DNA of 64,000 nt, from IMG/VR virus record IMGVR_UViG_2660238580_000002. One strand, written 5' to 3'. Origin of the DNA: a virus (taxonomy: Duplodnaviria; Heunggongvirae; Uroviricota; Caudoviricetes). Made by a program: the position numbers and the translations under genes. Every line of letters begins with the position of its first letter. Position 1 is the stretch's first letter. Shown one piece after another: positions 1,346 to 62,980 of this stretch. The notes under the pieces were generated by a model, which saw only the letters and a list, made by a program, of their open reading frames with translations, searched no databases and was not told the DNA's origin.

Positions 1346-1849
1346 TTATTGATAGTGTTTTATGTTCAGATAATGCCCGATGACTTTGTCATGCAGCTCC
1401 ACCGATTTTGAGAACGACAGCGACTTCCGTCCCAGCCGTGCCAGGTGCTGCCTCAGATTTAGGTTATGCCGCTCAATTCGCTGCGTATATCGCTTGCTGA
1501 TTACGTGCAGCTTTCCCTTCAGGCGGGATTCATACAGCGGCCAGCCATCCGTCATCCATATCACCACGTCAAAGGGTGACAGCAGGCTCATAAGACGCCC
1601 CAGCGTCGCCATAGTGCGTTCACCGAATACGTGCGCAACAACCGTCTTCCGGAGACTGTCATACGCGTAAAACAGCCAGCGCTGGCGCGATTTAGCCCCG
1701 ACATAGCCCCACTGTTCGTCCATTTCCGCGCAGACGATGACGTCACTGCCCGGCTGTATGCGCGAGGTTACCGACTGCGGCCTGAGTTTTTTAAGTGACG
1801 TAAAATCGTGTTGAGGCCAACGCCCATAATGCGGGCTGTTGCCCGGCAT
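1346..1849 (-). CDS. insB: IS1 transposase InsB (expressed as InsAB by frameshift)
   Basis: 167-aa ORF matching IS1 InsB from recollection. Confidence 0.9.
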
Positions 1850-2043
1850 CCAACGCCATTCATGGCCATATCAATGATTTTCTGGTGCGTACCGGGTTGA
1901 GAAGCGGTGTAAGTGAACTGCAGTTGCCATGTTTTACGGCAGTGAGAGCAGAGATAGCGCTGATGTCCGGCGGTGCTTTTGCCGTTACGCACCACCCCGT
2001 CAGTAGCTGAACAGGAGGGACAGCTGATAGAAACAGAAGCCAC
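1768..2043 (-). CDS. insA: IS1 InsA transposition regulator
   Basis: 91-aa ORF with zinc-finger CPSC...CSHC, IS1 InsA. Confidence 0.9.
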
Positions 2044-2846
2044 TGGAGCACCTCAAAAACACCATCATACACTAAATCAGTAAGTTGGCAGCATCACCGC
2101 GTTTTCTAGGTTTTTTCAGATAGTTGCATTTTTTAAAAAGCATCCTAAGTTCGATCTCAGTGTCTATCTGGGGCCTATTTATGTCCCATATATGCCCCAA
2201 AAAAAACTCCCCAACAGATAAGTAGTTTTTTCATGGATTTATGCGTAAAATCAAGAACGGCTGGAAATCATTCAATACTCACACTATCGAAAAATTTACC
2301 AGCCAACCGCAGCACGTTCTTGCATAAGGCGTGTCTGCGGTTTTTCAACTATTCAGATACATCACTCCCATCACATTCATTCCTCCGCATCAAAGGCATA
2401 TAGGCTATATCACCTTGATATTTTTATTTTTCAGATAAAAACTGTTATCTATGTATACTTTTAAACCCAATCCGTGTAGAGTCTCTGCATAAGATAGTTT
2501 GCAGTTGCCGCTTCAGCTTGCGCCATAAACCGCCTGATTTTTGCTGCCACCTGTTAGCATTCCTGTATACCTGAAACGACAATGTTTATCTACGAACTTT
2601 AAGAACACCCAAGATAAAAATTGTCAACTATATCATATATAACACATTACTAATTCGAGGCTATATGAACAGCATACTGATAATCACATCTCTCCTTATC
2701 ATATTCAGCATTTTTAGTCATGCCCTAATAAAATTAGGGATTGGCATATCCAATAACCCAGACAAAACCGATGTATAAGTCAACATATCCTGAATCAGAC
2801 ATACAATATCGCAATGAAAATCAATAATATTTTAAGGAATATCTTC

Positions 2847-3080
2847 ATGAAATCAAAAGACACCCTAAAGTGGTTCCCTGCGCAGCTTCCTGAAGTAAGA
2901 ATTATCCTAGGGGATGCTGTAGTGGAAGTAGCAAAACAGGGAAGACCTATCAATACCAGAACATTGCTTGATTACATTGAAGGAAACATAAAGAAAAAAT
3001 CATGGCTGGATAACAAAGAATTATTACAAACAGCGATATCAGTTCTTAAAGACAACCAAAATTTAAATGGTAAAATGTAA
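2847..3080 (+). CDS. ydfK: YdfK/YnaE-family small prophage protein
   Basis: ORF internal Met MKSKDTLKWFPAQLPEVRIILGD...; matches K-12 YdfK from recollection. Confidence 0.65.
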   Translation: MKSKDTLKWFPAQLPEVRIILGDAVVEVAKQGRPINTRTLLDYIEGNIKKKSWLDNKELLQTAISVLKDNQNLNGKM

Positions 3081-3396
3081 TATAATAAACTTACTTTTTT
3101 ATCATTTTTCCACTTTAACAACATTTTGCTCCACTTTTCCACGACCAAACAACTTGAAATCTGGTTAAAATAACACGTAACACTATTCTTCTTCCTTGAG
3201 TCCGCCCGGAACTCGAAAAACAAACCGAGTTAAAGCCATTTTTCACAAAATCGATTTTGGGTCTCACCAAAATTACGGGGTTGCATACGCATTCGTTTAT
3301 TTTCGAACGTGTACATACAAATATGCACAAAAATAATCAAAATTATTTTCTGAGATGCATTATGATATGAACACCAATTTCGTATAGAGTCTCACT

Positions 3397-4084: not shown

Positions 4085-4660
4085 CTACGGCAGTGCTGGC
4101 CATTCAATATCCTGTGCAGTTGACGTATCAACACGGTTCAGCAATACCCGATACTTTTTCCATGCTTCCAGCAACGAGATTTCTTCCTCCGTTGCAATTT
4201 CCAGATCTGCAGCATCCTGAAGCGGCGCAATATGCTCACTGGCTACCTGCATCAGGCTGTTTTTTGTTTCTTCCGCCTCCCGGATCCGGAACAGTTTTTC
4301 TGCTTCCGTATCCTTCACCCAGGCTGTGCCGTTCCACTTCTGATATTCCCCTCCCGGCGATAACCAGGTAACATTTTCCGGTAACGGACCGAGTTCAGAA
4401 ATAAATAACGCGTCGCCGGAAGCCACGTCATAAACCGTTTTACCCCGATGATCTTCAACGAGATGCCACGATGCCTCATCACTGTTGAAAACAGCCACGA
4501 AGCCTGCCGGAATATCTGGCGGTGCAATATCGATACTGTTTGCTGGCAGACCTGTATGAGGCGGAATATATGCGTCACCTTCACCAATAAATTCATTAGT
4601 TCCGGCCAGCAGATTATAAATTTTTATGGTCCGTGGTTGTTCACTCATTCTGAATGCCAT
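4085..4660 (-). CDS. tfa: tail fiber assembly protein Tfa
   Basis: 191 aa starting [24 protein letters not shown], lambda Tfa-like. Confidence 0.9.
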
Positions 4661-7747: not shown

Positions 7748-8347
7748 TCAGAATTTATAACCAACACCCACGATGAACCCGTCAGTGCGCCAGTCACCAC
7801 TGCCGGAGCCTTCATAAGCGACATCAATGGCCACGGATTCGGTCGGGTTAAACTGCACGCCAGCTCCCCACGCCAGAGACGTGTTGCTGTGGCGACCGTC
7901 ATCACTTCCGGTCAGCACGTCGTGCGTTTTCCCCTTGTTGTCAGTTACGCGGAGATAATCCCCGGAGAAAGTCGACACACGGCTGTAAGCCATACCCGCC
8001 ATCGCATACGCGCTGAACCATTCATTCACGCGCACAGACGGCCCCGCCATCACGCTGAACCAGCGGTTACGCACGGAATCTTCATGCCAGCGGGTATCGC
8101 TGTAACGGGTAAGCTGGCGATTCTTGTCTCCTGCATAGCTGAATGACGTCACCAGCCCCAGTGTGTCCGTAAACTCATAACGGTATTTCACGTTAATCCC
8201 GTTCAGATCATCGCTGCCGGGAACGTTCGTCGAGGCATGAAGATACCCCGCGCTCAGCGTGGACTGATGTTCAGACGCCCATGCAGGCGCACCGGATACG
8301 GCCAGACAAATGGCTGCGGACAAAATGGCGGCATAAAGTTTACGCAT
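7748..8347 (-). CDS. lom: Lom/Ail-family outer membrane protein
   Basis: 199 aa with signal peptide [24 protein letters not shown]; lambda Lom-like. Confidence 0.9.
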
Positions 8348-8371
8348 AATTACCTCTCGCTTTTCTGCAAT

Positions 8372-8395
8372 AAAAAAGGCGTCATTTCTGACGCC
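8372..8395 (-). terminator. rho-independent terminator-like hairpin downstream of J
   Basis: GGCGTCA-TTTC-TGACGCC hairpin followed on minus strand by T-run. Confidence 0.5.
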
Positions 8396-8413
8396 CGTTC
8401 TGGGTTATAAAAT

Positions 8414-11815
<3,402 letters not shown>

Positions 11816-20157: not shown

Positions 20158-20946
20158 TTACGCCAGTTGTACGGACACGAACGCATCAGGGTCAGCCAGC
20201 AGCATCAGCGGTGCTGACTGAATCATGGTGAACTCACGCGCCGGATCGCCGGTGGTCACCCAGTTTTTCGGGTAACGGGCAGAGGCGTTAATGCCTTCGC
20301 GCTGTGCGTCCGCATCCTGAATGCAGCCATAGGTGCGCAGACCGCGTGCCTGAGTGTTCCCCAGCACCATCGTGTTGTCCGGCAGGAAGTTCTTTTTGAC
20401 GCCGTTTTCCACGTACTGTCCGGAATACACGACGATGGCCACATCGCCATACATCCCCTTATAGGACACCGCTTTGCCCAGGTCTTTCACCGCTGTCTCC
20501 AGCTCGGAATTAGAGCCACGACGGGTATCCAGCTTCTCCTTGACGGCTTTGAAGGAACGGAACAGCGCCCAGCCTTTCGGATCGAACACGATGATATTCA
20601 CCACACCGCTGGCGTTCAGCGCGTAGGCTTCGATATCGTCGGTCGGGTCATACGTGGACTTGTCACGCTTGCTCCACTCCGTGCCGCCGGACTGCGTGAT
20701 GTTATTCTCCTCACTGCGGCCCATATCCACCTCAACCGGATCGAAGGCTTCACCGGTCATGGTGTATTTGCCCTTAAGCACGGCAGAAACTGCCTGCATC
20801 TCTTCGACCTGAGCAATGGCCAGCTCTTCGTCACGCATGTTCTGCATGATGATGCGACGGCGGCGGTAAGCCGGGTCCGCCAGATTCTGCGGATCTTCAT
20901 CCGGCAGGCGACGCAGGGTCATCTGCGGATTCACTTCATGCTTCGG
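20158..20946 (-). pseudogene. E: major capsid protein E, 3' fragment (codons ~82-341) cut off from its 5' part by island insertion
   Basis: Reads PKHEVNPQMTLRRLPDEDPQ...PDAFVSVQLA with no start codon; in-frame stop immediately upstream of PKH. Confidence 0.92.
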
Positions 20947-20948
20947 CT
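20939..20948. repeat. 10-bp direct repeat TGCTTCGGCT (island junction, putative att core)
   Basis: Identical 10-mer at 33376-33385; lies in E codons Lys-Pro-Lys-His. Confidence 0.8.
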
Positions 20949-22094: not shown

Positions 22095-22646
22095 TTAACT
22101 TCGCTGATTATCCTTGATATACCTTTCAGCCATATCTGGAATGTTATCTGAGATCTGGTAAGCTCGAATAAATGCTTTACTGACCTCCATCTTAATGAAG
22201 TCCTGATACCGTTTTTCCATGCCAGGAAACTGTCGACAGATCGCAAGTGGAAGACTATCAATGATTGCTCCAACTTCCCCAGTTAATTTCGACAAGGCAT
22301 AAGTCGCAAATGCAGTGTCAATTACCTCACCTGTTTCGCTGGCATTCTTCAGTTCCTGTGCGTCGGCCTGCGCACGCGTAAGTCGATGGCGTTCGTACTC
22401 AATAGTCCCTGGCTGGAGATCTGCCTCGCTGGCCTGGCGCAGTTCTTCAACCTCCCGGCGCAGCTTTTCGTTCTCAATTTCAGCATCCCTTTCGGCATAC
22501 CATTTTATGACGGCGGCAGAGTCATAAAGCACCTCATTACCCTTGTCACCGCCTCGCAGAACGGGCATTCCCTGCTCCTGCTAGTTCTGAATGGTACGGA
22601 TACTCGCACCGAAAATGTCAGCCAGCTGCTTTTTGTTGGCTTCCAT
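22095..22646 (-). pseudogene. terminase small subunit Nu1-like gene with in-frame amber codon at codon 22
   Basis: MEANKKQLADIFGASIRTIQN-TAG-QEQGMPVL...; first ~100 aa near-identical to prophage Nu1, C-terminal ~80 aa divergent; TAG at 22581-22583 where helper has TGG. Confidence 0.8.
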
Positions 22647-22699
22647 TGTTCATTCCACGGACAAAACCAGAGAAAGGAAACGACAGAGGCCAAAAAGCC

Positions 22700-22860
22700 T
22701 GTTTTTAGCACCTGTCGTTTCCTTTCTTTTTAGGGGATGTTTTTAATAAAAACATTAAGTTACGGCGAAGAAGAACGGAAACGCCTTAAACAGGAAAATT
22801 TTCACAAATAGCGAAAACCCGCGCGCCTGACGCCCCGTAGCCTGTCAGATCGCCGGAAAG
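22700..22860 (-). other. island cos-like region (cosB-like, variant cosN 22824-22835, partial cosQ-side)
   Basis: Aligns base-by-base with prophage cos (39600-39790); 5 of 12 cosN positions differ (GGGCGTCAGGCG vs GGGCGGCGACCT). Confidence 0.7.
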
Positions 22861-22891
22861 GACCCGCCAGCCAGAGCGGGCCCTAATTTCA

Positions 22892-24678: not shown

Positions 24679-24963
24679 ACACATCCTCTTTGCATTCATT
24701 AAAAATAATTGTGGATATATGCTATCACCAATATTTGTCATGCGAATACATGCAACCGAGTGCAATGTTGTATAAAGTTTTGGGATGACAACTTCAGCGC
24801 GGATAATTAGTGTTAATATATTCACTCCCTTTGGTCGGGATTTATGTAGCATGCCGGAAAATTTATTTTTTCCGGCCTTTTTTATTGGCAATATTTAAAA
24901 CGGAATATCATCTCCCCATTGCTCATTATCTCCCACTGGTGGATGGCTTCCTTGCTGATCTGC

Positions 24964-25344
24964 CTATTGTTTTGCTCTGTTCAGTGCGTCAGTAGCCTGA
25001 CCCTGTTGACCTTTTTTGCCGCCCGGTCGCACCGTTCGCGCACTGATTACGCTGTCTGCGATAACCTGCCAGCCCTGCCGCGTTTCACCGTTCTGTCCAG
25101 TCCACTGGCTCACCTGCATGTTACCCGCCACGCTCAGGAGTTCGCCTTTGTGATGCTTTGCCAGCGCATCGGCTTGTCTGCCAAACGCCAGCACAGATAA
25201 CCACATCGTCGCCGTTCCGTCATCTGCCTGGCTGCATGGCAAAGATACCGCCATCCGTGCCAGTGTCATGGGTGTTCCCTTGCTGGTATGTTTTACCTGT
25301 GGGTCGTCCACCAGCCGCCCGTAAGCTGCTATTTGCGCCGTCAT
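24964..25344 (-). CDS. single-stranded DNA-binding protein (OB-fold, SSB-like)
   Basis: 126 aa with SSB-like pattern GRLVDDPQV...WLSVLAFGRQAD...KGELLSVAGNMQVSQW. Confidence 0.6.
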   Translation of the reverse strand: MTAQIAAYGRLVDDPQVKHTSKGTPMTLARMAVSLPCSQADDGTATMWLSVLAFGRQADALAKHHKGELLSVAGNMQVSQWTGQNGETRQGWQVIADSVISARTVRPGGKKGQQGQATDALNRAKQ

Positions 25345-25355
25345 GCTGCCTGCTC

Positions 25356-25598
25356 TCAGGACTTAATATTGATGGTTGTCACTTCCTCCGCTTCGGCAAT
25401 CTCCCGTTCGGTCAGCGTGGCAAAGTTTGCAGCCGCCGTTGTCATGAATGCGCTTATCAGTTCGGGATGTGCTTTCGCGTATCCTTCCCCGGCGTTGCGG
25501 TCTATTGCCTTAATCGCCACCCTTAGCCAGTGTTCAGCCATATCAAGGGCGCGGTAATGTGGCTTTATATGTTTGTTCAGTTTTCCTGATGTGTGCAT
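25356..25598 (-). CDS. hypothetical protein
   Basis: 80-aa ORF immediately downstream of iteron region. Confidence 0.4.
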   Translation of the reverse strand: MHTSGKLNKHIKPHYRALDMAEHWLRVAIKAIDRNAGEGYAKAHPELISAFMTTAAANFATLTEREIAEAEEVTTINIKS

Positions 25599-25643
25599 TT
25601 TTATTTTTACCCCCTCGTTTAAAAAGTTTTTTGTGCACCACCA

Positions 25644-25876
25644 CCTTGTCTACCTTGTCTACCTGATTAGTTATCAGGCCAGTAATGGCGCGGGTTTCAG
25701 AGAGGTAGACAGCCCCAAATAGCTGTCTACCTCATCTCTACCCGTCTCCTTACCTGTCTACAAAAATGGGTAGATAAGGTAGATAACAGGTAGACAGTGA
25801 AAAATAGTTATCTACCTGCATTAATACATTGAAATAAAAGTATTTTATTTCAGTCAGGTAGACAAGGTAGATAACC
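25644..25876. repeat. iteron cluster (GGTAGACA/GGTAGATA and complement TGTCTACC), putative island replication origin
   Basis: More than 10 copies of an 8-11 bp motif in both orientations, AT-rich, directly upstream of primase gene. Confidence 0.75.
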
Positions 25877-25887
25877 ATTGCCATTTT

Positions 25888-27639
25888 TTATAAAAACGCA
25901 TCGCAATCATCAGTAGTCGTTGCGTTGGTCTGAGTGACTCCCTTAACTTTTCGCGTAATATATTCATATCCGTAAACTTTCGCCGCTGACCTCATAGCCT
26001 TTCCGAACTCATTCACGCTCAAACATTTCCCCTTTCCTGTATATGCCATGAAGGCCATATAGACACGGTAAAGGCTGTTTCTGGTCGTGTACTTCACGGT
26101 GTCACCACCACCGCCCATCATTAGCCCACGAGCTTCCTCCAGAAACTCCAGCGCCGCGCAAAGCTCAACAACCGGATCCGTTTGCTGCTTTATTGCCAGA
26201 GCTTCATCACCGTCACGCTGTTCCAGTAATAAAGCCCGTGCCTTTTCAGGGTCAGCAAAATTAGCCAGCAAGCGGCGGATAATTACGGGGATTTCTGCCG
26301 CTATCTTTTCCGGTAATTCCTTGTCTTTTTCGTCCTCCCTTACAATGTTGTCGAACCGGAAAATCACCCGACGGCGTGACACACCTCCGGCCCGTTCGGT
26401 AAAGATCATCGGGTCGTTATTGGTTGCCAGTACCACCGCCCTTATTATCGTCGTGAATCGCTTCTCATATTTCGGGTTAATTTCAACGGGATCGCCTCCC
26501 GTGATTTTCTTGATGCCCGTGCCTTCCCCCGTATATTTCGGCTGATCGGCAAGGACGATAAGACGACTCCCGACAACCTGCGCGCGCCCTCCTGCATCAT
26601 CGAGTGATGTCATCTCTGCGCTTACGGTGTTCTGTTTGCCAGCAAGCAGGGTGGCAATATGAGTAAATGTGCTCTTTCCGCTTCCCCCGTCTCCGGTGGC
26701 CTCAATGAACATCTGCCAGTCGTAGCGGTTCGCCATAATCATGTATAACGCGGCACATATACGCATCATCTTGCGCGGGTCTTTTCCTGCAGCATGTTCA
26801 AGCCATTTATGGAAATTTGGCGCATTATCGCGGATGTTTTCCCCTGCTACTGGTGGCGTGTACTCAATACCATTGTGCGTGGTGCTCCAGTGCTCCGGCG
26901 AGTGCGGAGAAAATTCCCCCGTTTTCAGATTAAGCACACCATTAGTGAACGGTAGCAAATCACCGGACGGCTCCCCCATGGGGGCGGCAATAACTTTTAA
27001 CGCTTCCACGGCGTTATTGATTACGCGCTTGCTGAACGTGGCCCTGTGCTCTGAATAGATCGCCACCATTTCGCGGCTCAGCTCCATTGTGCTGACCGGA
27101 CACCATACCCCGCCGCGCCATACGTGGACGATTTCACTTTCTGCATGAACACAAACACCATCAAAGCGATCGGCAAGTAGTTGTGCCCGCTCACTGTCTG
27201 CCATCTGTGAAAGTTGCGCCTTTTGCTTCGTCGGAAGATTAAGCACCAGGCTTTCCCCACGCTCGCATTCCTCTTTGAGTCGCGGCAACTGGTCGGATAA
27301 ATCCACTGGGCTGGTGTCAGTAATCCCCGCGTATTCGTGTACGGTCTTCACTCCAGCCACAGCCAGTAACGTAACAATCTGCGTCATGCTGTGCTCTGTG
27401 ATATGTCCTGCGCGGTAAACACGCACACACTGACGATCTTCATCAATGATCCGGTAATCGGTGATGTTTTTCAGTTGCTCATCAGCCAACACGACAGGCG
27501 GCACATCGTCGGCGGCAATATGTTTACCCGCCCATTCCTGCCACTCTTTCGCATGGCTCCACGCATCACTACCTGCAAAGATGATTACCTCTGTCAGTCT
27601 GTCGCGTGGCTGTTTTTTTAAGTTCGGTGCCAGTTTCAT
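25888..27639 (-). CDS. P4-family primase/helicase (Pri-Rep-like replication protein)
   Basis: 583 aa; Walker A GDGGSGKST in C-terminal NTPase domain; adjacent to iterons. Confidence 0.75.
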   Translation of the reverse strand: MKLAPNLKKQPRDRLTEVIIFAGSDAWSHAKEWQEWAGKHIAADDVPPVVLADEQLKNITDYRIIDEDRQCVRVYRAGHITEHSMTQIVTLLAVAGVKTVHEYAGITDTSPVDLSDQLPRLKEECERGESLVLNLPTKQKAQLSQMADSERAQLLADRFDGVCVHAESEIVHVWRGGVWCPVSTMELSREMVAIYSEHRATFSKRVINNAVEALKVIAAPMGEPSGDLLPFTNGVLNLKTGEFSPHSPEHWSTTHNGIEYTPPVAGENIRDNAPNFHKWLEHAAGKDPRKMMRICAALYMIMANRYDWQMFIEATGDGGSGKSTFTHIATLLAGKQNTVSAEMTSLDDAGGRAQVVGSRLIVLADQPKYTGEGTGIKKITGGDPVEINPKYEKRFTTIIRAVVLATNNDPMIFTERAGGVSRRRVIFRFDNIVREDEKDKELPEKIAAEIPVIIRRLLANFADPEKARALLLEQRDGDEALAIKQQTDPVVELCAALEFLEEARGLMMGGGGDTVKYTTRNSLYRVYMAFMAYTGKGKCLSVNEFGKAMRSAAKVYGYEYITRKVKGVTQTNATTTDDCDAFL

Positions 27640-27935
27640 TTTTTGCCCCTGAATGCGTTAATCATGCTTTTCATTTTCTGGATGTTTCCCCGCGCTTTTT
27701 CCCTGCTGATGGGCTTACTGCGGGGTGCGGCATATACCAGGGAAAAATCACGCCGGAACTGATAAACAGGCATCACGCAGTCATAGCTATACCCCTCACG
27801 ACGGTAAGTGATGCGCCGTTCTGCCACGCCTTTAATCGTTACCGTGCCGCCGTATTTATCGCGGTAAATATCGCCGTTCATAAATTCAGGCCGAGCGGGG
27901 CCGCTGGCAATAAAGCCAGAATTTTTCATTTCCAT
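27636..27935 (-). CDS. hypothetical protein
   Basis: 99-aa ORF, stop overlaps primase start. Confidence 0.4.
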   Translation of the reverse strand: MEMKNSGFIASGPARPEFMNGDIYRDKYGGTVTIKGVAERRITYRREGYSYDCVMPVYQFRRDFSLVYAAPRSKPISREKARGNIQKMKSMINAFRGKK

Positions 27936-27952
27936 ATTATTTATTCCTCGAC

Positions 27953-28174
27953 TTAACTCGACTTATTTGATAGCAGGGCACTATTTATTGCGTCATTGAG
28001 TTTTTCTGCTGCTTCATCAATAAGTGACAACAGGCCATAAGCAATATTTGCATCTTCATTGTCATTTATGCAATCAAGCCACATATTTAATATTGCTTTT
28101 GCTGAATTATTTAAAGTTAATGAACTTTCTGCACATGCTAACAATTTAAAAAAGACTTCCCGTTCTGTATTCAT
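27953..28174 (-). CDS. hypothetical protein
   Basis: 73-aa ORF in island early region. Confidence 0.35.
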   Translation of the reverse strand: MNTEREVFFKLLACAESSLTLNNSAKAILNMWLDCINDNEDANIAYGLLSLIDEAAEKLNDAINSALLSNKSS

Positions 28175-28366
28175 TTAATCCCCCACCAGCTTACTTTCTT
28201 CCTCAATCAAAAAACTAGCGACACTTCCCGAAAGACGCGCCAGTAGGCTCGCCAGTGCGGATATATCAGCATCTGTAATTTTGTTCGGGTATACCTCAAG
28301 AAGGCGGCAAATAATTTCTGTCTGGTGCGCACGTTCAGCGGCTTCGTGTAATGTGATTTCCTGCAT
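28175..28366 (-). CDS. hypothetical protein
   Basis: 63-aa ORF in island early region. Confidence 0.35.
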   Translation of the reverse strand: MQEITLHEAAERAHQTEIICRLLEVYPNKITDADISALASLLARLSGSVASFLIEEESKLVGD

Positions 28367-28600
28367 TAATGCACCTCTTTTAATTCATACACTGCTGAAA
28401 TAATGACTTGTGATAAGCCATATTCTGATGATTCGCTTCTCACCGCAGCAATAGCCGTCTGAACATTAACAGCCTTCACGTTCTGAGCGATACCAATTGT
28501 GTGGCCTAGTGGGTTAACCGCACGAGCAAATACACGGAAGGTTTTAAGCACGGCATACTGAACCGCCCCGGGTTTCCTGGAGAGTGTTTTATCTGTGAAC

Positions 28601-29491
28601 TCAGGCTGCCAGATCATCGTTTCCGATGGAAGCATAATAAGCTTTTTCTGCTTCTGCCGGAGGAGTATGGCCCAGCCTTTCCAGCAATCGTCGATTGTTA
28701 TACCAGTCCACCCACGTGAGTGTGGCCAGTTCCACTTCTGCACGGTTTTTCCAGCTCTTACGGTGTATTACCTCCGCTTTGTAAAGACCATTGATGCTCT
28801 CCGCCATCGCGTTGTCATACGAGTCGCCTGTACTTCCTGTTGATGCCAGTAATCCGGCTTCCTTAAGCCGCTGTGTGTAGGCCAGCGATACATACTGAGA
28901 ACCTTTATCACTGTGATGGACCGTGCCGGACGGTCGACGGGCCCATAACGCCTGCTCCAGTGCATCCAGCACGAATGTCGTTTCCATGGACGATGAGACC
29001 CGCCACCCCACGATGTATCCGGCAAACACATCAATGATGAACGCCACATAGACGAAGCCCCGCCATGTGCTGACGTAAGTAAAATCAGCCACCCACAGCT
29101 GGTCAGGTCGTTCTGCCACGAACTGACGGTTTACGCGGTCGCCTGCGGCAACGGCTTTCCGGCTGATGGTCGTACGGACCTTTTTACCCCGGAGAACACC
29201 GGCAAGTCCCATAACCGCCATGAGACGTGCCACAGTGCATCTGGCCACTCTGATACCTTCCCGTAACAACTGACGCCAGACTTTACGCACACCGTATACC
29301 TTGTGATTTTCATCGTATACGCGCTGTATCTCTTTCTTCAGCCAGTCATCGCGCTGCGCACGGGCACTGCGTTTATCCGGATGATGTCGCTGTTGCTGAC
29401 AGTGGTAATACGTTGACGGGGCAATATGCAGTTCGCTGCATAGCGGTCCGACCCCGTACTGCTCACGCAGCTTATCCAGCAGTGGCATCAT
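28601..29491 (-). CDS. IS629 transposase OrfB (DDE integrase core)
   Basis: 296 aa, identical to copy at 61767-62657. Confidence 0.9.
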
Positions 29492-29814
29492 TTTTTCCAG
29501 AGGCGGTCGAACTCCGCCTTCGCAAAATAAGCGGAAGCCTGGCGAAGGATATCGTTACTGCGGCGCAGTTCACGATTTTCACGTTCCAGCTCTTTCAGAC
29601 GCTGACGTTCAGCGGTGGTGAGCCCTCCATCACCGCCCCCGGTATCCCGCTCATGCTGGCGAACCCAGACACGCAGAGTCTCCGGCGTACAGCCAATCTT
29701 TGGAGCAATGGAACAAATTGTCGCCCATTGTGAGTCATATTCGCTCTGACTTTCCAGAACCATACGGACTGCCCGTTGACGGACTTCGGGGGAAAAACGA
29801 GTATTTTTAGTCAT
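29488..29814 (-). CDS. IS629 transposase OrfA (HTH)
   Basis: 108 aa [30 protein letters not shown]. Confidence 0.9.
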
Positions 29815-29868
29815 CCTGTTTACCTCTTTCTCAGGAAGTTTAGTCTCCAGGATTCCCGGGGCGGTTCA

Positions 29869-31744: not shown

Positions 31745-31975
31745 TTAAGTTGTTTCCCACTCACCTCGAATCCATGCCTGCACTTCTGAAAGACGATATG
31801 CAACAGCAGTGGAACCAATCTTGATCCGCTTAGGAAATTTTCCTTCCTTCTCCAGCTTCCAGCGTGTGCTGTTCGCAAGAGTGGTTAGCTCCCGACATTC
31901 TTTCTCACGGATCATTCGGTCAATGTTAGGAATGTACTCCAGACCCTTTTTATCAACAATTGCCATTTTTTTCAT
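31745..31975 (-). CDS. alpA: AlpA-family transcriptional regulator
   Basis: 76 aa; TTLANSTRWKLEKEGKFPKRIKIGSTAVAYRLSEVQAWI AlpA-type HTH; immediately downstream of int. Confidence 0.75.
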   Translation of the reverse strand: MKKMAIVDKKGLEYIPNIDRMIREKECRELTTLANSTRWKLEKEGKFPKRIKIGSTAVAYRLSEVQAWIRGEWETT

Positions 31976-31976
31976 G

Positions 31977-33212
31977 TTAACCAGCCTTTTGTTTGAGGAT
32001 TGTCACTTTTGAATCAGCACCTGCGATGCTATTGAGATATGTAGTCCAGAGTTCCAGAGCATCCAGTTTTTTAGCCATAAACTTACTCCGGTTGTAAACA
32101 CCTGCCACGCCAGGTAGCGCATGGCCTAACAGTTGTTCTACTACATAAAATTCAACACCGAGATCACTTAGATGAGTAGATAGCGTTCTTCTAAGGTCGT
32201 GTAGTGACCATTGTTTTTCATGGCCCAAACGTTTACCGATTTTCCCCCCAATCTTGCTTACGCTTTCTCTAATTCGCAGACTTCCCAGCACATAACCAGT
32301 ATGTTTTGTCTCTTCGTGAACATCCGTTACCCACTGTCGTAGAATTTCAGGTACTGGTCTGACGATTTCAACACCGGTTTTTGAGTGTTCTTTTGGTACA
32401 GTCCAAACCCAACTTTCTAGATCCCATTCGCTCCATTCTGATAATCGGGCTTCACTCATTCGACATCCAAATACTGTACAAAGCACAAACATTTTTCGCG
32501 TGTATTCAGACATTAGTTTTAAATCAGGCTCGACAAAAATTGCCTTCCAGAGCTGGCCCAGTTCGGCTTCATCCAGAACCCGATCCCGCTTACCTGCAAT
32601 CTGCCCCACATCACTCATGCGCAAATCCTTTAAAGCATCACACGTCGCGTACTGGCGTACCCGACAAAAACGAAGAGCTAATTTAGTGTCAGAAAAAACA
32701 TACGCCGCCATAACTGGTGCATTACGTTTAATTCGGTCAAAACAGTCCAGCCATTCATATAGGTGAGTGTCATTTACGGGCAAATGACCGATATAGGGAA
32801 AGATATGCTTTCGAAATCTGCCAAGCGTTACAGCATGAGTTTTACGACGCACCTTACAGTAATTTTCATACCAGTAATTTAGTGCATCCTCCACTGTGAC
32901 CGGCTTTAAGCGTTCTTCAGCCTGAATCTTAATCTGGATACGCGGATCACGTTTGTCAGCCAACCAACCACGGCACTCGTCGCGCTTTTCTCTTGCCTGT
33001 TTGAGTGACATATCAGGATATTTACCCAACGTTAGCCAGACCGGAGCAGCCCGGCCACCTGCTAACCTGTAGAAGAAAACAAAGCTCACAGCCCCCTTAG
33101 TACTCACACGAATAGAAAGCCCCTTTCCATCAGCAATGGTGATCTGCTTTTCTCTGGGTTTCCCCAGATATCCTTTAAGCGCTTTGTCGCTCAGTTTGTT
33201 CTCGCCAGCCAT
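31977..33212 (-). CDS. int: P4-type tyrosine integrase
   Basis: Start MAGENKL; DUF4102-like arm domain; catalytic residues R (CRMSEARL), HDLRRT, Y (VAGVYNRS); adjacent to junction repeat. Confidence 0.9.
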   Translation of the reverse strand: MAGENKLSDKALKGYLGKPREKQITIADGKGLSIRVSTKGAVSFVFFYRLAGGRAAPVWLTLGKYPDMSLKQAREKRDECRGWLADKRDPRIQIKIQAEERLKPVTVEDALNYWYENYCKVRRKTHAVTLGRFRKHIFPYIGHLPVNDTHLYEWLDCFDRIKRNAPVMAAYVFSDTKLALRFCRVRQYATCDALKDLRMSDVGQIAGKRDRVLDEAELGQLWKAIFVEPDLKLMSEYTRKMFVLCTVFGCRMSEARLSEWSEWDLESWVWTVPKEHSKTGVEIVRPVPEILRQWVTDVHEETKHTGYVLGSLRIRESVSKIGGKIGKRLGHEKQWSLHDLRRTLSTHLSDLGVEFYVVEQLLGHALPGVAGVYNRSKFMAKKLDALELWTTYLNSIAGADSKVTILKQKAG

Positions 33213-33344
33213 TTTTAGCCCCAAAAAGCAATACAAGCTGCAATACAGAGATGATTGCAACACACAGATAACGAGGAAAATCCAGTGAAAGCGCCAGATA
33301 ATCTTATTCTTTATTATCAAAGAATTAAGTGTAAAAACCAGCAA

Positions 33345-33620
33345 CTACACGAAAGCCTCAGAAAGCCATGCTAAGTGCTTCGGCTTGACATATCCCGGCG
33401 TAAATTCAGAGGTGGAGCCGCCACGGGAACGGATAACCTCACCGGAAACAATCGGCGAAACGTACAGCGCCATGTTTACCAGTCCCGGAATTTGTGAGAG
33501 ATAGACTTTCTCCGTGGTGAAGGGATAGCTCTCACGGAAAAAGAGACACAGAAACAGCGGATCAAACTTAAATTTCTGCTCATTTGCCGCCAGCAGTTGG
33601 GCGGTTGTGTACATCGACAT
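33345..33620 (-). pseudogene. E: major capsid protein E, 5' fragment (codons 1-~83) fused to 9 island-derived codons
   Basis: MSMYTTAQLLAANEQKFKFDPLFL...EFTPGYVKPKH then LAWLSEAFV-stop from island sequence. Confidence 0.92.
33376..33385. repeat. 10-bp direct repeat TGCTTCGGCT (island junction, putative att core)
   Basis: Identical to 20939-20948; overlaps E codons Lys-Pro-Lys-His of the 5' fragment. Confidence 0.8.
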
Positions 33621-33675
33621 AAAAAAATCCCGTAAAAAAAGCCGCACAGGCGGCCTTTAGTGATGAAGGGTAAAG

Positions 33676-39045: not shown

Positions 39046-39565
39046 TCAGCAACCCCGGTATCAGTTCATCCAGCGCGGCTGCTTTGTTCATGGCTTTGAT
39101 GATATCCCGTTTCAGGAAATCAACATGTCGGTTTTCCAGTTCCGGAAAACGCCGCTGCACCGACAGGGGGATCCCGTCGAGAATACTGGCAATTTCACCT
39201 GCGATCCGCGACAGCACGAAAGTACAGAATGCGGTTTCCACCACTTCAGCGGAGTCTCTGGCATTTTTCAGCTCCTGTGCGTCGGCCTGCGCACGCGTAA
39301 GTCGATGGCGTTCGTACTCAATAGTCCCTGGCTGGAGATCTGTCTCGCTGGCCTGCCGCAGTTCTTCAACTTCCCGGCGCAGCTTTTCGTTCTCAATTTC
39401 AGCATCCCTTTCGGCATACCATCTTATAACGGCGGCAGAGTCATAAAGCACCTCATTACCCTTGCCACCGCCTCGCAGAACGGGCATTCCCTGTTCCTGC
39501 CAGTTCTGAATGGTACGGATACTCGCACCGAAAATGTCAGCCAGCTGCTTTTTGTTGACTTCCAT
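39020..39565 (-). CDS. Nu1: terminase small subunit Nu1
   Basis: 181 aa MEVNKKQLADIFGASIRTIQNWQEQGMPVLRGGGKGNEV; 546 nt equals lambda Nu1. Confidence 0.93.
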   Translation of the reverse strand: MEVNKKQLADIFGASIRTIQNWQEQGMPVLRGGGKGNEVLYDSAAVIRWYAERDAEIENEKLRREVEELRQASETDLQPGTIEYERHRLTRAQADAQELKNARDSAEVVETAFCTFVLSRIAGEIASILDGIPLSVQRRFPELENRHVDFLKRDIIKAMNKAAALDELIPGLLSEYIEQSG

Positions 39566-39599
39566 TGTTCATTCCACGGCCAAAAACAGAGAAAGGAAA

Positions 39600-39790
39600 C
39601 GACAGAGGCCCAAAAGCTCGTTTTCAGCACCTGTCGTTTCCTTTCTTTTCAGGGGGTATTTTAAATAAAAACATTAAGTTACGACGAAGAAGAACGGAAA
39701 TGCCTTAAACCGGAAAATTTTCATAAATAGCGAAAACCCGCGAGGTCGCCGCCCCGTAACCTGTCGGATCACCGGAAAGGACCCGTAAAG
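39600..39790 (-). other. prophage cos site (cosB, cosN at 39743-39754, cosQ)
   Basis: Contains AGGTCGCCGCCC (reverse complement of lambda cohesive end GGGCGGCGACCT) followed by CGTAACCTGTCGGATCACCGGAAAGGACCCGT. Confidence 0.85.
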
Positions 39791-39953
39791 TGATAATGAT
39801 TATCATCTACATATCACAACGTGCGTGGAGGCCATCAAACCACGTCAAATAATCAATTATGACGCAGGTATCGTATTAATTGATCTGCATCAACTTAACG
39901 TAAAAACAACTTCAGACAATACAAATCAGCGACACTGAATACGGGGCAACCTC

Positions 39954-41381: not shown

Positions 41382-41652
41382 GATGTTACCGTAGTATGTG
41401 AGTATCCATCGAATAGACACCAAGCAAAAAAGCTCCCGAAGGAGCCTTCATTTTCACTTTTTTAAATCCAACGACAGACGGCTGGCATTTAAGTATTGTG
41501 AAATATTATCAAATGTAATCATCATTGATTTACAAAAGATACATTTTGCCCCGAAAGGATTCATGTCAGAAACATCAAAAGATGATGTTCTATACTGGGA
41601 ACCATGACAACACGGGCATCTAAAGTGAATATGGTTTGTAATATTGTCTACC

Positions 41653-41865
41653 TCAAAGCGCCACTACATGAACAGCGGCAGGACCTTTAGGTCCGTTCTC
41701 AATACCAAATTCAACTTCCTGATTCTCAGTTAATGTTTTGAAATCGTTGCTCTGAATTGCTGAGAAATGGACAAACACATCTTTGCTGCCATCTTTCGGC
41801 GTGATGAAACCAAAACCTTTTTCAGGGTTAAACCATTTCACTAAACCAGTCATTTTGTTAGACAT
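41653..41865 (-). CDS. cspI: cold shock protein (CspA family)
   Basis: 70 aa [38 protein letters not shown], cold-shock domain. Confidence 0.85.
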
Positions 41866-42227
41866 AATTATTACCTTTTGAAGAAATTAGCCCTTGGGCA
41901 GAATGGTCCGAAAAAAAATATCAGAGAGAAAAACCAACAAGGAAATCTCAAGAGGTACAAATAATAAAATTATAACAATGACTGCTTCAGATAAATTTGT
42001 AACAAACCAGAACACCATTAACGCATGATTAACCACCCATAGCAAGGATTACTTTTGTAAAGAAAAACACAGCAATGAAAGAATAGCTTTATTTATTAAT
42101 AAAACGTGTCATTCTGATTAAGACCTTTTATCTTACCCTTAAGATTTCAGGAATTTTGGCTCATGGAAGAGTCCTTTTTATTTAAATTTTACATTCCGCG
42201 ATGTAAATGTTCCGATTTAATATTACC

Positions 42228-44254: not shown

Positions 44255-44536
44255 TGAGATTGTGGTGCTTTTTGTGGGAGTCATCCACTTACGCACTTTG
44301 TTTTGCCATGCCAGCAGTTAGCTTCTGCTGTAAAACTATTCATGCAGCAAACCTGCACTTCACCACAATGGTTAGCATACTTTTCCTGATTAATATTTTG
44401 CCAAATATGCTAGCCATTGTTTCATGTATTGGACCTCCTTACTTTTTATTAAAGAGATCCAATATTCACTACTCTGTCCGTATCTCTACTCAGGCATCAG
44501 CCTTCTTCGTTATCGTATACAGACGAGCGATGAATT

Positions 44537-44752
44537 TTAATCAGTAATGATGACATTTGCTGCTGCAGGACCTTTAGCACCACTCTCTATAGAGAAGGTA
44601 ACCTTTTGACCTTCAAATAAGGTTCGATAATTATCATTCTGAATCGCAGAAAAATGCACAAACACATCTTTACTACCATCAACAGGAGAAATAAAGCCGA
44701 AACCTTTATCAGCGTTAAACCATTTTACTAAACCAGTCATTTTATTTGACAT
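44537..44752 (-). CDS. cspB: cold shock protein (CspA family)
   Basis: 71 aa [34 protein letters not shown]. Confidence 0.85.
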
Positions 44753-45052
44753 TCTACATTCCTTAACTTGAGCCTTTCGGCATAAATGGTTTGCATAACA
44801 GAAACGACTTCGTACTTAATTGGAGAGACTCAAAGAAGGAATAAGTGAATAACACCTGAAATGAGAACTGCTTTAGTAAACTACTTCGTATATCGTCTGT
44901 TCTTCAAACCGACGCAATCATTAACGCATAGTTGAACATATGAAGCAATGTTTATTTTAGACATCCAGCCATCTTCAACCCCATCAAAAAACTATAGCTT
45001 TCTTCAGGAACGTGTGTATAGTGCGCCAAGTTATCAGTATTAAGGAATTTTT

Positions 45053-51685: not shown

Positions 51686-53238
51686 GAAAAATCCCCCAGA
51701 GAATTGTCTGGGGACATTTTAGAATGGTTCAAAGGGGACATTACAGCTTGGTGTTAACAATAGCCTGCTTCTCCGTGCCTTTCGGCACGTAAGAGGCTAA
51801 CCTACATGTGTCTAGCATGAAATTGGCCTCAGATTAATGTTAAGCGTCTTGCAGGACGCGTAATGTTAACTGGGGCTTTTCTCTATCTGCCGTTGGTGTC
51901 CATGCCCGAGGCAGATAGCCTCAAGCACCCGCAGTCATTCTACTTAACTAAGATTTCCCCGCAAACCGTTTTTGTCCAGCACAGTAAATATCCAACTAAA
52001 CCAATGGAGTTCGCTGTATTTACCGCCAGTATTCAATGCACATGACCGCCATGAACACCCCTAAAAAAAGGGCATTTATATATCCAAATATTAATATCAA
52101 AACATCAACTTTTTCCATATACCTTGCTGTGAAGATGATGGGCATACATGATGCGAACAACCAGAACGCAACAAACAAAAACTGCAATGCGTTTTTCATT
52201 ATTCCTCCTACAATCAATGTGCAATTACATTTAAACACACCTCAATTTGGCCGGACATATAAATATCTAAACCAGAAAAAATCACTTACATAGCGTTACA
52301 AACTCTTTAGTCTAAAGGTTCATCGTAAAACATTCCCCATACTTATCAGTCCGTTCCGCGCCAGGTAGCTCATTGCCTTATCTGGCAACCTGTAATCAGG
52401 TTTCCGCTTTTTCAGTTGGCTGGTCGTTTAACCGACATAGTTAATCCATTAATCTAGTTGCCGGATGTTGGTGGATTTTCGCGTTTTAGTTGTTCATAAA
52501 AGTGCACAGCTTTAACCAGTTCTTCTGATGTAACTGGGACTGGTGAGGCAGTGAATAAGGCCTGAATTTGATAGTTCGGCCTGTCGTTACAATCCTCTTT
52601 TTTCGGTACATATTTCCAGTCACCAGACCACTACTTCCCCTGAAAGTCCGTAACGCCTTTTTTCACGTAGCGATATCGCCATGCCACTGGTTTTGCTTGC
52701 CCCGCCGTTTCATGCCCTTCCTGATAATTAATCTCGCTCATTCATCGCCCCACTCATCACAATATGCTTCGACCGGAGTTTTTCCCGCTTCATAGTCATC
52801 ACGCTAGGATTCGACATCAGCAGCACTTCCACCGCGTAACTCACCATAGTCCATTAATAGTTCATCCCGCTCTTCAAAACTGATGTTATATTTAGCTGAA
52901 CAAAAATCAGCCACTTTGTTCTTCCTCATCGTCTTTTATTTCGTGGTATGAGTAATTGCAGTAGTTAAAGAAAATTTCTTATGCTCCGTCATGAATTTCC
53001 GTAAGCGTAAACTGACCGCCGTATGTAGCCATCAGACGAGAATTGGTAACTTAGACGCCCATCTGATATAGACGGACATCTAAGTATGGAATTACAGGAC
53101 TGGCGAAAAGAACCTCGTAAAAACTATTCGAATGAATTCAAACTTCGTAGACTGGCCCCCTGAATCTCCAGACAACCAATATCACTTAAATAAGTGATAG
53201 TCTTAATACTAGTTTTTAGACTAGTCATTGGAGAGCAG

Positions 53239-61256: not shown

Positions 61257-61314
61257 TTTCTGGTGACGTTTGGCGGTATCAGTTTTACTCCGTGACTGCT
61301 CTGCCGCCCTTTTT
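61257..61314 (+). ncRNA. dicF: DicF small RNA (ftsZ-targeting sRNA)
   Basis: TTTCTGGTGACGTTTGGCGGTATCAGTTTTACTCCGTGACTGCTCTGCCGCCCTTTTT matches DicF from recollection; ends in terminator. Confidence 0.8.
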
Positions 61315-61766: not shown

Positions 61767-62657
61767 TCAGGCTGCCAGATCATCGTTTCCGATGGAAGCA
61801 TAATAAGCTTTTTCTGCTTCTGCCGGAGGAGTATGGCCCAGCCTTTCCAGCAATCGTCGATTGTTATACCAGTCCACCCACGTGAGTGTGGCCAGTTCCA
61901 CTTCTGCACGGTTTTTCCAGCTCTTACGGTGTATTACCTCCGCTTTGTAAAGACCATTGATGCTCTCCGCCATCGCGTTGTCATACGAGTCGCCTGTACT
62001 TCCTGTTGATGCCAGTAATCCGGCTTCCTTAAGCCGCTGTGTGTAGGCCAGCGATACATACTGAGAACCTTTATCACTGTGATGGACCGTGCCGGACGGT
62101 CGACGGGCCCATAACGCCTGCTCCAGTGCATCCAGCACGAATGTCGTTTCCATGGACGATGAGACCCGCCACCCCACGATGTATCCGGCAAACACATCAA
62201 TGATGAACGCCACATAGACGAAGCCCCGCCATGTGCTGACGTAAGTAAAATCAGCCACCCACAGCTGGTCAGGTCGTTCTGCCACGAACTGACGGTTTAC
62301 GCGGTCGCCTGCGGCAACGGCTTTCCGGCTGATGGTCGTACGGACCTTTTTACCCCGGAGAACACCGGCAAGTCCCATAACCGCCATGAGACGTGCCACA
62401 GTGCATCTGGCCACTCTGATACCTTCCCGTAACAACTGACGCCAGACTTTACGCACACCGTATACCTTGTGATTTTCATCGTATACGCGCTGTATCTCTT
62501 TCTTCAGCCAGTCATCGCGCTGCGCACGGGCACTGCGTTTATCCGGATGATGTCGCTGTTGCTGACAGTGGTAATACGTTGACGGGGCAATATGCAGTTC
62601 GCTGCATAGCGGTCCGACCCCGTACTGCTCACGCAGCTTATCCAGCAGTGGCATCAT
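61767..62657 (-). CDS. IS629 transposase OrfB
   Basis: 296 aa identical to copy 1. Confidence 0.9.
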
Positions 62658-62980
62658 TTTTTCCAGAGGCGGTCGAACTCCGCCTTCGCAAAATAAGCGG
62701 AAGCCTGGCGAAGGATATCGTTACTGCGGCGCAGTTCACGATTTTCACGTTCCAGCTCTTTCAGACGCTGACGTTCAGCGGTGGTGAGCCCTCCATCACC
62801 GCCCCCGGTATCCCGCTCATGCTGGCGAACCCAGACACGCAGAGTCTCCGGCGTACAGCCAATCTTTGGAGCAATGGAACAAATTGTCGCCCATTGTGAG
62901 TCATATTCGCTCTGACTTTCCAGAACCATACGGACTGCCCGTTGACGGACTTCGGGGGAAAAACGAGTATTTTTAGTCAT
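62654..62980 (-). CDS. IS629 transposase OrfA
   Basis: 108 aa identical to copy 1. Confidence 0.9.

Follow-up and report, generated by a model that had tools for sequence, protein, structure and literature searches.

What copies the DNA of a mobile island that lies inside a prophage? The question is raised by a replication gene and the 290-bp gap beside it in IMG/VR virus record IMGVR_UViG_2660238580_000002 (Caudoviricetes), of which the whole stretch of 64,000 nucleotides, hereafter the window, was analyzed. An earlier note on this DNA had read the locus as an iteron origin with an initiator helicase serving the replication of a mobile island, and that reading stood, given the synteny with EcCICFT073, the model phage-inducible chromosomal island (PICI) of Gram-negative bacteria from E. 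coli CFT073, the iteron shared with it, and the plasmid maintenance reported for the EcCICFT073 region (PMC6092414). We conclude, with a probability of roughly 85%, that the segment is the Pri-Rep/ori replication module of a Gram-negative PICI of the EcCICFT073 type, embedded in a lambda-like prophage. The module is a replication unit of an already described kind and leaves the current picture of PICI biology unchanged, and a previously unannotated 290-bp gap can now be filed as the origin of a phage satellite. The features on which this reading rests are the following, all genes of the module lying on the minus strand.

25888..27639, minus strand: gene for the Pri-Rep initiator/helicase, 583 aa (open reading frame [ORF] and translation)
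27232..27639, minus strand: N-terminal domain of Pri-Rep, about 136 aa (aa 1-136), alpha/beta, not recognisable as a primase
26668..26694, minus strand: Walker A motif GDGGSGKST, Pri-Rep aa 316-324 (computed motif positions)
25906..26181, minus strand: predicted C-terminal winged-helix origin-binding domain, Pri-Rep aa 487-578 (match to PDB 1KA8)
25647..25873, no strand: putative origin, 12 iterons of 8 bp (GGTAGAYA / TRTCTACC) in both orientations (8-mer scan)
25817..25856, no strand: AT-rich stretch of 40 bp, 20% GC, presumed melting site (composition profile and iteron map)

The 583-aa helicase with GDGGSGKST that had been noticed at this place was confirmed: the ORF at 25888-27639 on the minus strand carries the motif at residues 316-324, followed by a Walker B-like LIVLAD at aa 360, the superfamily 3 (SF3) motif C VVLATNN at aa 402 and an arginine run, SRRRV, at aa 421. 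In Pfam, Pri-Rep matched D5_N (aa 152-282, E = 6e-16), DUF5906, an SF3 ATPase (aa 315-416, E = 6e-10), and weakly Pox_D5 (aa 487-578, E = 6e-4, with 20.6 bits against a cut-off of 21.4 bits), and it also matched PHROG 864 (E = 3.8e-161). When compared by blastp with the P4 alpha sequence from NC_001609, residues 137-578 corresponded to alpha residues 321-762 with 41.5% identity over 442 aa (E = 4e-118), and residues 1-136 gave no alignment to P4 alpha, its residues 1-320 included. Residues 225-441 aligned to PriRep5 of the Staphylococcus aureus pathogenicity island (SaPI) SaPI5 (PDB 7OLA, E = 7e-15), and residues 487-578 to PDB 1KA8 (E = 2.3e-7), a 100-residue chain titled "putative P4-specific DNA primase" that aligns to the C-terminal part of P4 alpha. 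Pri-Rep has the D5_N, SF3 helicase and C-terminal origin-binding winged-helix parts of P4 alpha, homologous to it in each. The designation P4-family primase/helicase was thus borne out for the helicase and origin-binding parts (residues 137-578) but not for the primase, whose domain is absent; NCBIfam TIGR01613 (P4 family primase) scored 104.3 bits against Pri-Rep, narrowly under its cut-off of 108.7 bits, and this model, for all its name, in fact describes the helicase part. The ORF of Pri-Rep is without interruption, and other genomes and IMG/VR contigs contain copies of it at 100% identity.

The 8-mer GGTAGAYA occurs exactly 11 times in the 64-kb window, where 1.76 copies would be expected, and 10 of these fall within 25647-25873; a count of 11 was reached in none of 100 shuffles. 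Two one-mismatch copies, at 25735 and 25755, bring the array to 12 iterons in 227 bp. The earlier claim of more than ten GGTAGA(C/T)A iterons in both orientations was right about the orientations and the clustering, but exact copies number ten and a higher count needs the two degenerate ones. The array had moreover been placed directly upstream of the helicase gene. It starts 14 bp past the Pri-Rep stop codon (25888-25890), in the 290-bp gap 3′ of the gene, and therefore lies downstream, between the helicase gene and an 80-aa ORF whose start codon follows the last iteron by 48 bp. To our knowledge, iterons stand 3′ of the rep gene in all PICIs and SaPIs. Towards the helicase gene the AT-rich stretch at 25817-25856 adjoins two tandem iterons, and on its other side inverted ones. 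The array has the layout of a SaPI-type origin, whose central AT-rich region has at least two iterons to either side, pointing in opposite directions. Elsewhere in the island no second iteron cluster was found with one mismatch allowed, promoter-like and terminator-like sites in 24800-28500 were no more numerous than in shuffled sequence, and Rfam gave no match in or near the origin.

The start-to-start spacings of the iterons are nearly mirror-symmetric (9, 48, 20, 11, 20, 14, 9, 11, 20, 48, 9). Of the two 48-bp intervals one is AT-rich, and the other (25664-25703) is of ordinary composition and partly kept in EcCICFT073 (CGCGCCATTACTGGC). The iteron region was also considered as a cos or pac site and rejected, the cos-like segment being elsewhere in the island (22560-22880); a bipartite P4-like arrangement of ori plus crr was rejected on the single iteron cluster in the island.

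The closest described counterpart of the module is that of EcCICFT073, which has the same order of DUF4222, Pri-Rep, ori, small ORF, single-stranded DNA-binding protein (SSB), E-like capsid and decoration genes. Its Pri-Rep has 584 aa and is followed by a 288-bp gap. The two Pri-Rep proteins are 80% identical overall, with 93% in D5_N, 95% in the SF3 core, 84% in the C-terminal domain and 43% in the N-terminal domain, which in EcCICFT073 is a different allele; the 80-aa ORF and the DUF4222 gene are 80% and 72% identical to their counterparts. The EcCICFT073 gap holds nine exact GGTAGAYA copies, likewise in two sets around an AT-rich stretch 3′ of the gene. Over about 297 bp its origin can be aligned collinearly with that of the window, and iteron columns are 85% identical versus 61% for the spacers (Fisher p = 4e-5), a difference that points to selection on the iterons. 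The same organisation, an AT-rich region between two sets of iterons past the 3′ end of the initiator gene, was described by Fillol-Salom et al. 2018 (PMC6092414), who obtained colonies in E. coli at the restrictive temperature when the EcCICFT073 rep gene and putative ori were placed in a thermosensitive plasmid, no colonies with a rep mutant, and significantly fewer with an ori deletion (PMC6092414). This plasmid replication test covers the EcCICFT073 region, which shares its iteron with the window; the window module itself is known from sequence. The two islands differ in that EcCICFT073 adjoins phoQ in the chromosome whereas the window island lies inside a prophage capsid gene, in that the EcCICFT073 SSB is intact with 136 aa while that of the window would have 149 aa and carries an amber codon at position 127, and in an insertion sequence (IS) present in the window copy.

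A scan of GTDB representatives with the single protein gave 4 loci only, and the diversity of relatives described here comes from an IMG/VR scan with an alignment. All 26 of the sampled IMG/VR relatives carried a short repeat array 3′ of the gene (a 7-mer in 5-10 copies within 330 bp), which changed with the C-terminal sequence; loci of Serratia, Morganella, Shigella and E. coli NRG857c also had a short repeat 3′ of the gene, so that the whole set spans 5-11 copies within about 330 bp. The window iterons recur in the Shigella relative (78% identity), and the Serratia (51%) and Morganella (52%) relatives have CTGTTCAC and TGTTCAT, respectively, the repeats beginning directly after the stop codon in each. 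C-terminal domain identity was 80-99% among users of GGTAGAYA, 45-50% among users of TGTTCA, P4 included, and 30-34% between the two groups. The helicase core grouped differently, with Serratia (71%) and Morganella (66%) closer to the window protein than to P4. These comparisons suggest that the C-terminal winged-helix domain is the reader of the iterons.

A finer contrast came from two IMG/VR contigs, L081 and L082 (Pri-Rep gene at 1501-3264 in both, iterons in the 330 bp downstream), whose Pri-Rep proteins do not differ in the N-terminal domain (100% identity) and hardly in the helicase (99.7%) but fall to 88% over the final 117 aa (14 differences), and whose iterons, at collinear positions, read GGTATACA in L081 versus GGTGTTCAT in L082. 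They offer a natural experiment on origin specificity, in which near-identical helicases with few C-terminal residues changed go with different iterons, and their C-terminal differences form a natural map of candidate specificity-determining residues.

Pri-Rep and ori also move as one piece. The island 11capE of E. coli NRG857c is the founding helper-embedded PICI (HE-PICI), and it and the window island are 97-99% identical on both sides of the module, with Rep/ori replaced: the 11capE Pri-Rep has 606 aa, is 48% identical to that of the window and is accompanied by nine CTGTTCACC iterons. Given these near-identical flanks, Rep plus ori has been exchanged as a unit. The boundaries of the cassette lie near 25551 and 27346-27647 (compared with 8221-10372 of the NRG857c locus, L091), and the N-terminal 300 nt of the Pri-Rep gene keep 74.5% identity to NRG857c, a sign that a recombination boundary may lie within the N-terminal domain. 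Such cassette swaps, together with the C-terminal and iteron data, could guide the design of orthogonal replicons.

By comparison with these systems, the 583-aa Pri-Rep is an SF3 initiator helicase of D5/P4-alpha type, presumably self-loading, with a C-terminal winged-helix domain, and Rep plus ori constitute one exchangeable specificity cassette. The C-terminal domain would read the GGTAGAYA iterons in the 290-bp gap 3′ of its own gene, as we infer from the covariation described above and from the biochemistry of P4 alpha and SaPI Rep. By analogy with both (PMC9371898), binding on both sides of the 40-bp AT-rich stretch would melt the duplex, hexamers would load without a separate loader, and synthesis would fall to host enzymes, including the host polymerase. 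Priming is probably host-dependent, or performed by an unrecognised activity, because the N-terminal domain cannot be recognised as a primase.

The SaPI replicons used for comparison were SaPI1 Rep and SaPI5 PriRep5 with their origins. SaPI origins lie directly downstream of rep, with 6-12 iterons round a central AT-rich region and at least two opposed iterons on each side (Qiao et al. 2022, PMC9371898), and an AT-rich stretch between iteron sets is described for origins of Gram-negative PICIs (PMC6092414) and SaPIs (PMC9371898) alike. In SaPI Rep, the C-terminal winged-helix domain reads the iterons and the helicase self-loads (PMC9371898). The similarity of PriRep5 to Pri-Rep is nevertheless confined to the ATPase core; PriRep5 has 797 aa with a large N-terminal putative primase part, unlike the 583-aa Pri-Rep, SaPI iterons measure 5-6 nt versus 8 nt in the window, and SaPIs have Gram-positive hosts and the Stl repressor, whereas the window island has AlpA.

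P4 shares with the window 8-bp iterons in both orientations in a block directly 3′ of the gene, and its type-1 repeat TGTTCACC is itself used by relatives in the same family as the window Pri-Rep. It differs in that alpha has 777 aa with a Zn ribbon and a Toprim primase with EGYATA, which Pri-Rep lacks, in that its iterons read TGTTCACC rather than GGTAGAYA, with origin-binding domains 32% identical, and in having two clusters, a bipartite ori plus crr, where the window island has one.

Several observations weigh against the reading as a working PICI replication module. In P4, the iterons that directly follow the 3′ end of alpha make up crr, which assists in cis, and the true ori is elsewhere (annotated at 9086-9809, about 2.1 kb beyond the 5′ end of alpha). 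The N-terminal domain of Pri-Rep lacks every primase signature tested, which leaves leading-strand priming unexplained. In 11capE, the only HE-PICI studied experimentally, two of three repeats gave a ratio of attP to attB of about 1 after excision, and the remaining one gave 1.6-1.9 (PMC10111431), so that independent replication after excision would be weak or absent there; these data bear only loosely on the window replicon because 11capE has a different Rep/ori allele, and for that reason they were dropped as a direct test of it. Finally, the island copy in the window looks decayed, with an insertion of an IS3-family element, an amber codon in the SSB gene and another in the gene for the small terminase subunit (TerS). 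The inserted element is the following.

28559..29866, minus strand: IS3-family element of 1,308 bp, orfA of 108 aa and orfB of 296 aa (rve and HTH_Tnp_1 domains)

It was inserted close to the 3′ terminus of the Icd-like gene, with the alpA end of the island on one side and the replication module on the other, and is co-oriented with the operon. Its breakpoints were taken from locus L001, which is otherwise 99.9% identical and has no IS, and its ALIL frameshift pseudoknot lies at 29417-29533.

The alternative that survives best is that the architecture is right but the module is inert here: the island would be decaying, induction of its replication genes would have ceased, and its copying would be passive only, along with the prophage or the chromosome. 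We regard this as a real possibility, although a somewhat doubtful one. The operon is expected to be activated at its alpA end (inferred from PMC10111431), and induction of the window island is uncertain because the IS3-family element lies between that end and Pri-Rep; in-frame TAG codons interrupt the SSB gene and the Nu1-like TerS gene, where the prophage copy of the latter has TGG, and the island splits the capsid gene of its host prophage. The related 11capE showed little amplification after excision, and no particles were recovered (PMC10111431). Pri-Rep and the origin themselves, however, are intact: the Pri-Rep ORF is 100% identical to copies elsewhere, and all 12 iterons agree with those of relatives at 98% identity. 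As the IS has the orientation of the operon, transcription could read through it, and the region that was tested from EcCICFT073 consisted of the rep gene and the ori site, without SSB. The decay does bear on the earlier description of the module as self-contained, which was too strong, since a primase is unsupported, the SSB is truncated and outside the cassette, and the IS3-family element lies upstream.

The N-terminal domain carries the second alternative, in which Pri-Rep is a true bifunctional primase-helicase, as annotated, with a minimal divergent Toprim primase at its N terminus. The domain does sit where Toprim sits in P4 alpha, just ahead of D5_N, and the EcCICFT073 replication region was tested without any further island gene. 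P4 alpha, however, shows Zn_Ribbon_Prim at 30-66 and Toprim_3 at 210-299, the latter containing EGYATA, and neither zinc ribbon nor Toprim nor EGYATA was found in the N-terminal 136 aa of Pri-Rep by Pfam and motif search. The N-terminal 150 residues were modelled from an alignment of 24 homologues (mean predicted local distance difference test score [pLDDT] 84), and Foldseek with this model returned nothing significant; with both plausible alignment registers, the 24 homologues have Ala/Gly or varying residues where a Toprim would have its Glu and DxD. With no Toprim fold match and no conservation at the acidic Toprim positions, primase activity of Pri-Rep is unsupported, and the domain would be at most a degenerate Toprim-like fold. 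Its attachment to unrelated helicase types fits an adaptor role better than a catalytic one, and we consider a catalytic primase unlikely. The label "DNA primase family protein" that Pri-Rep bears in hundreds of E. coli genomes is owed to the helicase part only.

The N-terminal domain is without a Pfam family and has the hallmark MKxAPN...TEVIIFAGSDAW...PPV. As a domain of about 125 aa it also precedes RepA-like AAA_25 (PF13481) and DUF927-like modules in other E. coli proteins (P0019, P0027, P0029, P0061, P0003, P0064), and because of these fusions it behaves as a portable module. Rather tentatively, we suggest that it may be not a primase but a portable adaptor found on at least three unrelated replicative ATPases of E. 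coli PICIs (P4-alpha-type SF3, RepA/AAA_25-type and DUF927-type), which would bring DnaG or another host factor, or else a factor of the helper phage, to the satellite origin. If true, this would tie satellite replication to host or helper in a way not yet described.

It is, last, highly improbable that the iteron block is a cis enhancer like P4 crr, or a Rep-bound operator for the downstream operon (80-aa ORF, SSB, capsid), with initiation elsewhere: the type-1 repeat block directly 3′ of alpha in P4 is indeed crr, with ori about 2.1 kb beyond the alpha 5′ end, and the window iterons stop 48 bp before the next start codon, but no second iteron cluster was found in the island with one mismatch allowed, the EcCICFT073 clone held the rep gene and ori site only and ori deletion significantly cut colony numbers, the AT-rich stretch with opposed iterons is the origin layout of SaPIs and PICIs, and promoter-like and terminator-like sites are not enriched in the region.

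The Pri-Rep/ori module, our preferred reading of the locus, is flanked by the following genes.

24895..25344, minus strand: SSB gene with an in-frame TAG at 24964-24966 (translation, PF00436, TIGR00621)
25356..25598, minus strand: conserved 80-aa ORF between ori and the SSB gene (PHROG 1231, E = 8.5e-46, function unknown)
27636..27935, minus strand: DUF4222 gene, whose stop codon overlaps the Pri-Rep start codon (Pfam DUF4222, E = 9e-24)

Read to the TAG, the SSB-family ORF extends over 24964-25344 on the minus strand and encodes 126 aa, with matches to PF00436 (E = 4.8e-15, 55.9 bits against a cut-off of 26) and TIGR00621 (56.2 bits against 53.95). An SSB-like gene following the helicase gene had been proposed, and the family assignment was upheld; the gene is, however, truncated by the TAG, stands outside the Rep plus ori cassette, and is separated from the helicase gene by the 80-aa ORF, on which that proposal was silent. 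Past the TAG, the frame runs ADQQGSHPPVGDNEQWGDDIPF, that is, 22 further codons including the tail GDDIPF, to the natural stop at 24895-24897. The truncated protein keeps the OB fold and loses the 22-residue C terminus ending in DDIPF. The acidic C-terminal tip (D-D-I-P-F) is the docking site for partner proteins in bacterial SSBs; here it is encoded behind the TAG, and it is intact in nearly all relatives. Codon 127 is CAG (Q) in relatives, and among about 50 related loci the TAG is shared by L011 only, the Pri-Rep of which is 100% identical to that of the window. An identical SSB copy is marked by RefSeq as a pseudogene with an internal stop (NZ_CP110858), and two other genomes 98% identical to the window have an intact SSB of 149 aa. 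Lying outside the exchanged Rep plus ori specificity unit, the SSB gene is an accessory gene. The 80-aa ORF, largely outside the swapped cassette, is an accessory gene as well, and it had no match in Pfam, NCBIfam or PDB. The DUF4222 gene is kept just upstream of Pri-Rep in EcCICFT073 and 11capE (loci L008 and L091).

The island in which the module lies measures about 12.4 kb, the 1.3-kb IS included. From the annotation of a matching genome and domain scans, its order is int, AlpA, DUF2971, SWIM, Icd-like, three small ORFs, DUF4222, Pri-Rep, ori, 80-aa ORF, SSB, lambda E-like capsid, D-like decoration, AlpA-like helix-turn-helix (HTH), Nu1-like TerS and DUF2971. Its landmarks are the following.

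31977-33344, minus strand: int, island gene
31745-31975, minus strand: AlpA, island gene
20158-20934 and 33345-33647: halves of the split capsid gene
20939-20948 and 33376-33385: 10-bp identity block TGCTTCGGCT at both island ends

The initiator is encoded in a unidirectional operon downstream of int and alpA, and the island falls within the size of about 10-20 kb and is without lysis or tail genes, as in Gram-negative PICIs. The capsid gene that it interrupts, in the same orientation, has 99.9% identity to lambda E up to lambda coordinate 6370, where the match stops, and this configuration recurs in three other genomes and in NRG857c. The island belongs to the HE-PICI site E:Phage_cap_E:80 and is an HE-PICI in a lambda E-like capsid gene, an already published class. 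The insertion at about codon 78-80 of a lambda E-like capsid gene, the common orientation of island and gene, and the 10-bp identity block are shared with 11capE. The int and alpA of 11capE are 98.9% identical to those of the window island, and the stretch that begins with the 80-aa ORF and continues over the SSB, capsid and decoration genes to the HTH gene is 97% identical. The two islands differ in the accessory genes at their ends and in the IS and two nonsense codons of the window copy. The authors who described HE-PICIs already credit such islands with a primase and an origin of their own, and list Primase, SSB and DUF5906 in the Replication zone (PMC10111431).

Several E. coli strains carry the module region in their chromosomes at 100% identity, and matches spanning 80% of it or more occur in 252 of 5,426 complete genomes. 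A megablast search of 24900-27700 against 50,697 phage records gave no match; records of bacterial chromosomes and IMG/VR contigs contain the element, and those of phage genomes do not.

The remaining observations concern the surroundings of the module. The cos-like segment of the island is 94% identical to the cos region of the prophage (39480-39800), and cosN differs, reading GGGCGTCAGGCG in the island versus GGGCGGCGACCT in the prophage (window 22095-22880). An apparently identical second copy of the IS3-family element, with the same ORF sizes and the same ALIL score, lies at about 61767-62980, near the window end. Rfam matches above the gathering score were an IS009 RNA, two cspA thermoregulators, a sok antitoxin RNA and DicF, and were located as follows.

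4119-4317, 41626-42011, 44521-44913, 51759-51930 and 61258-61309: Rfam matches

These matches, together with the relBE, hokD and ydfU-type genes of the matching genome, indicate that the surrounding prophage region is Qin-like.

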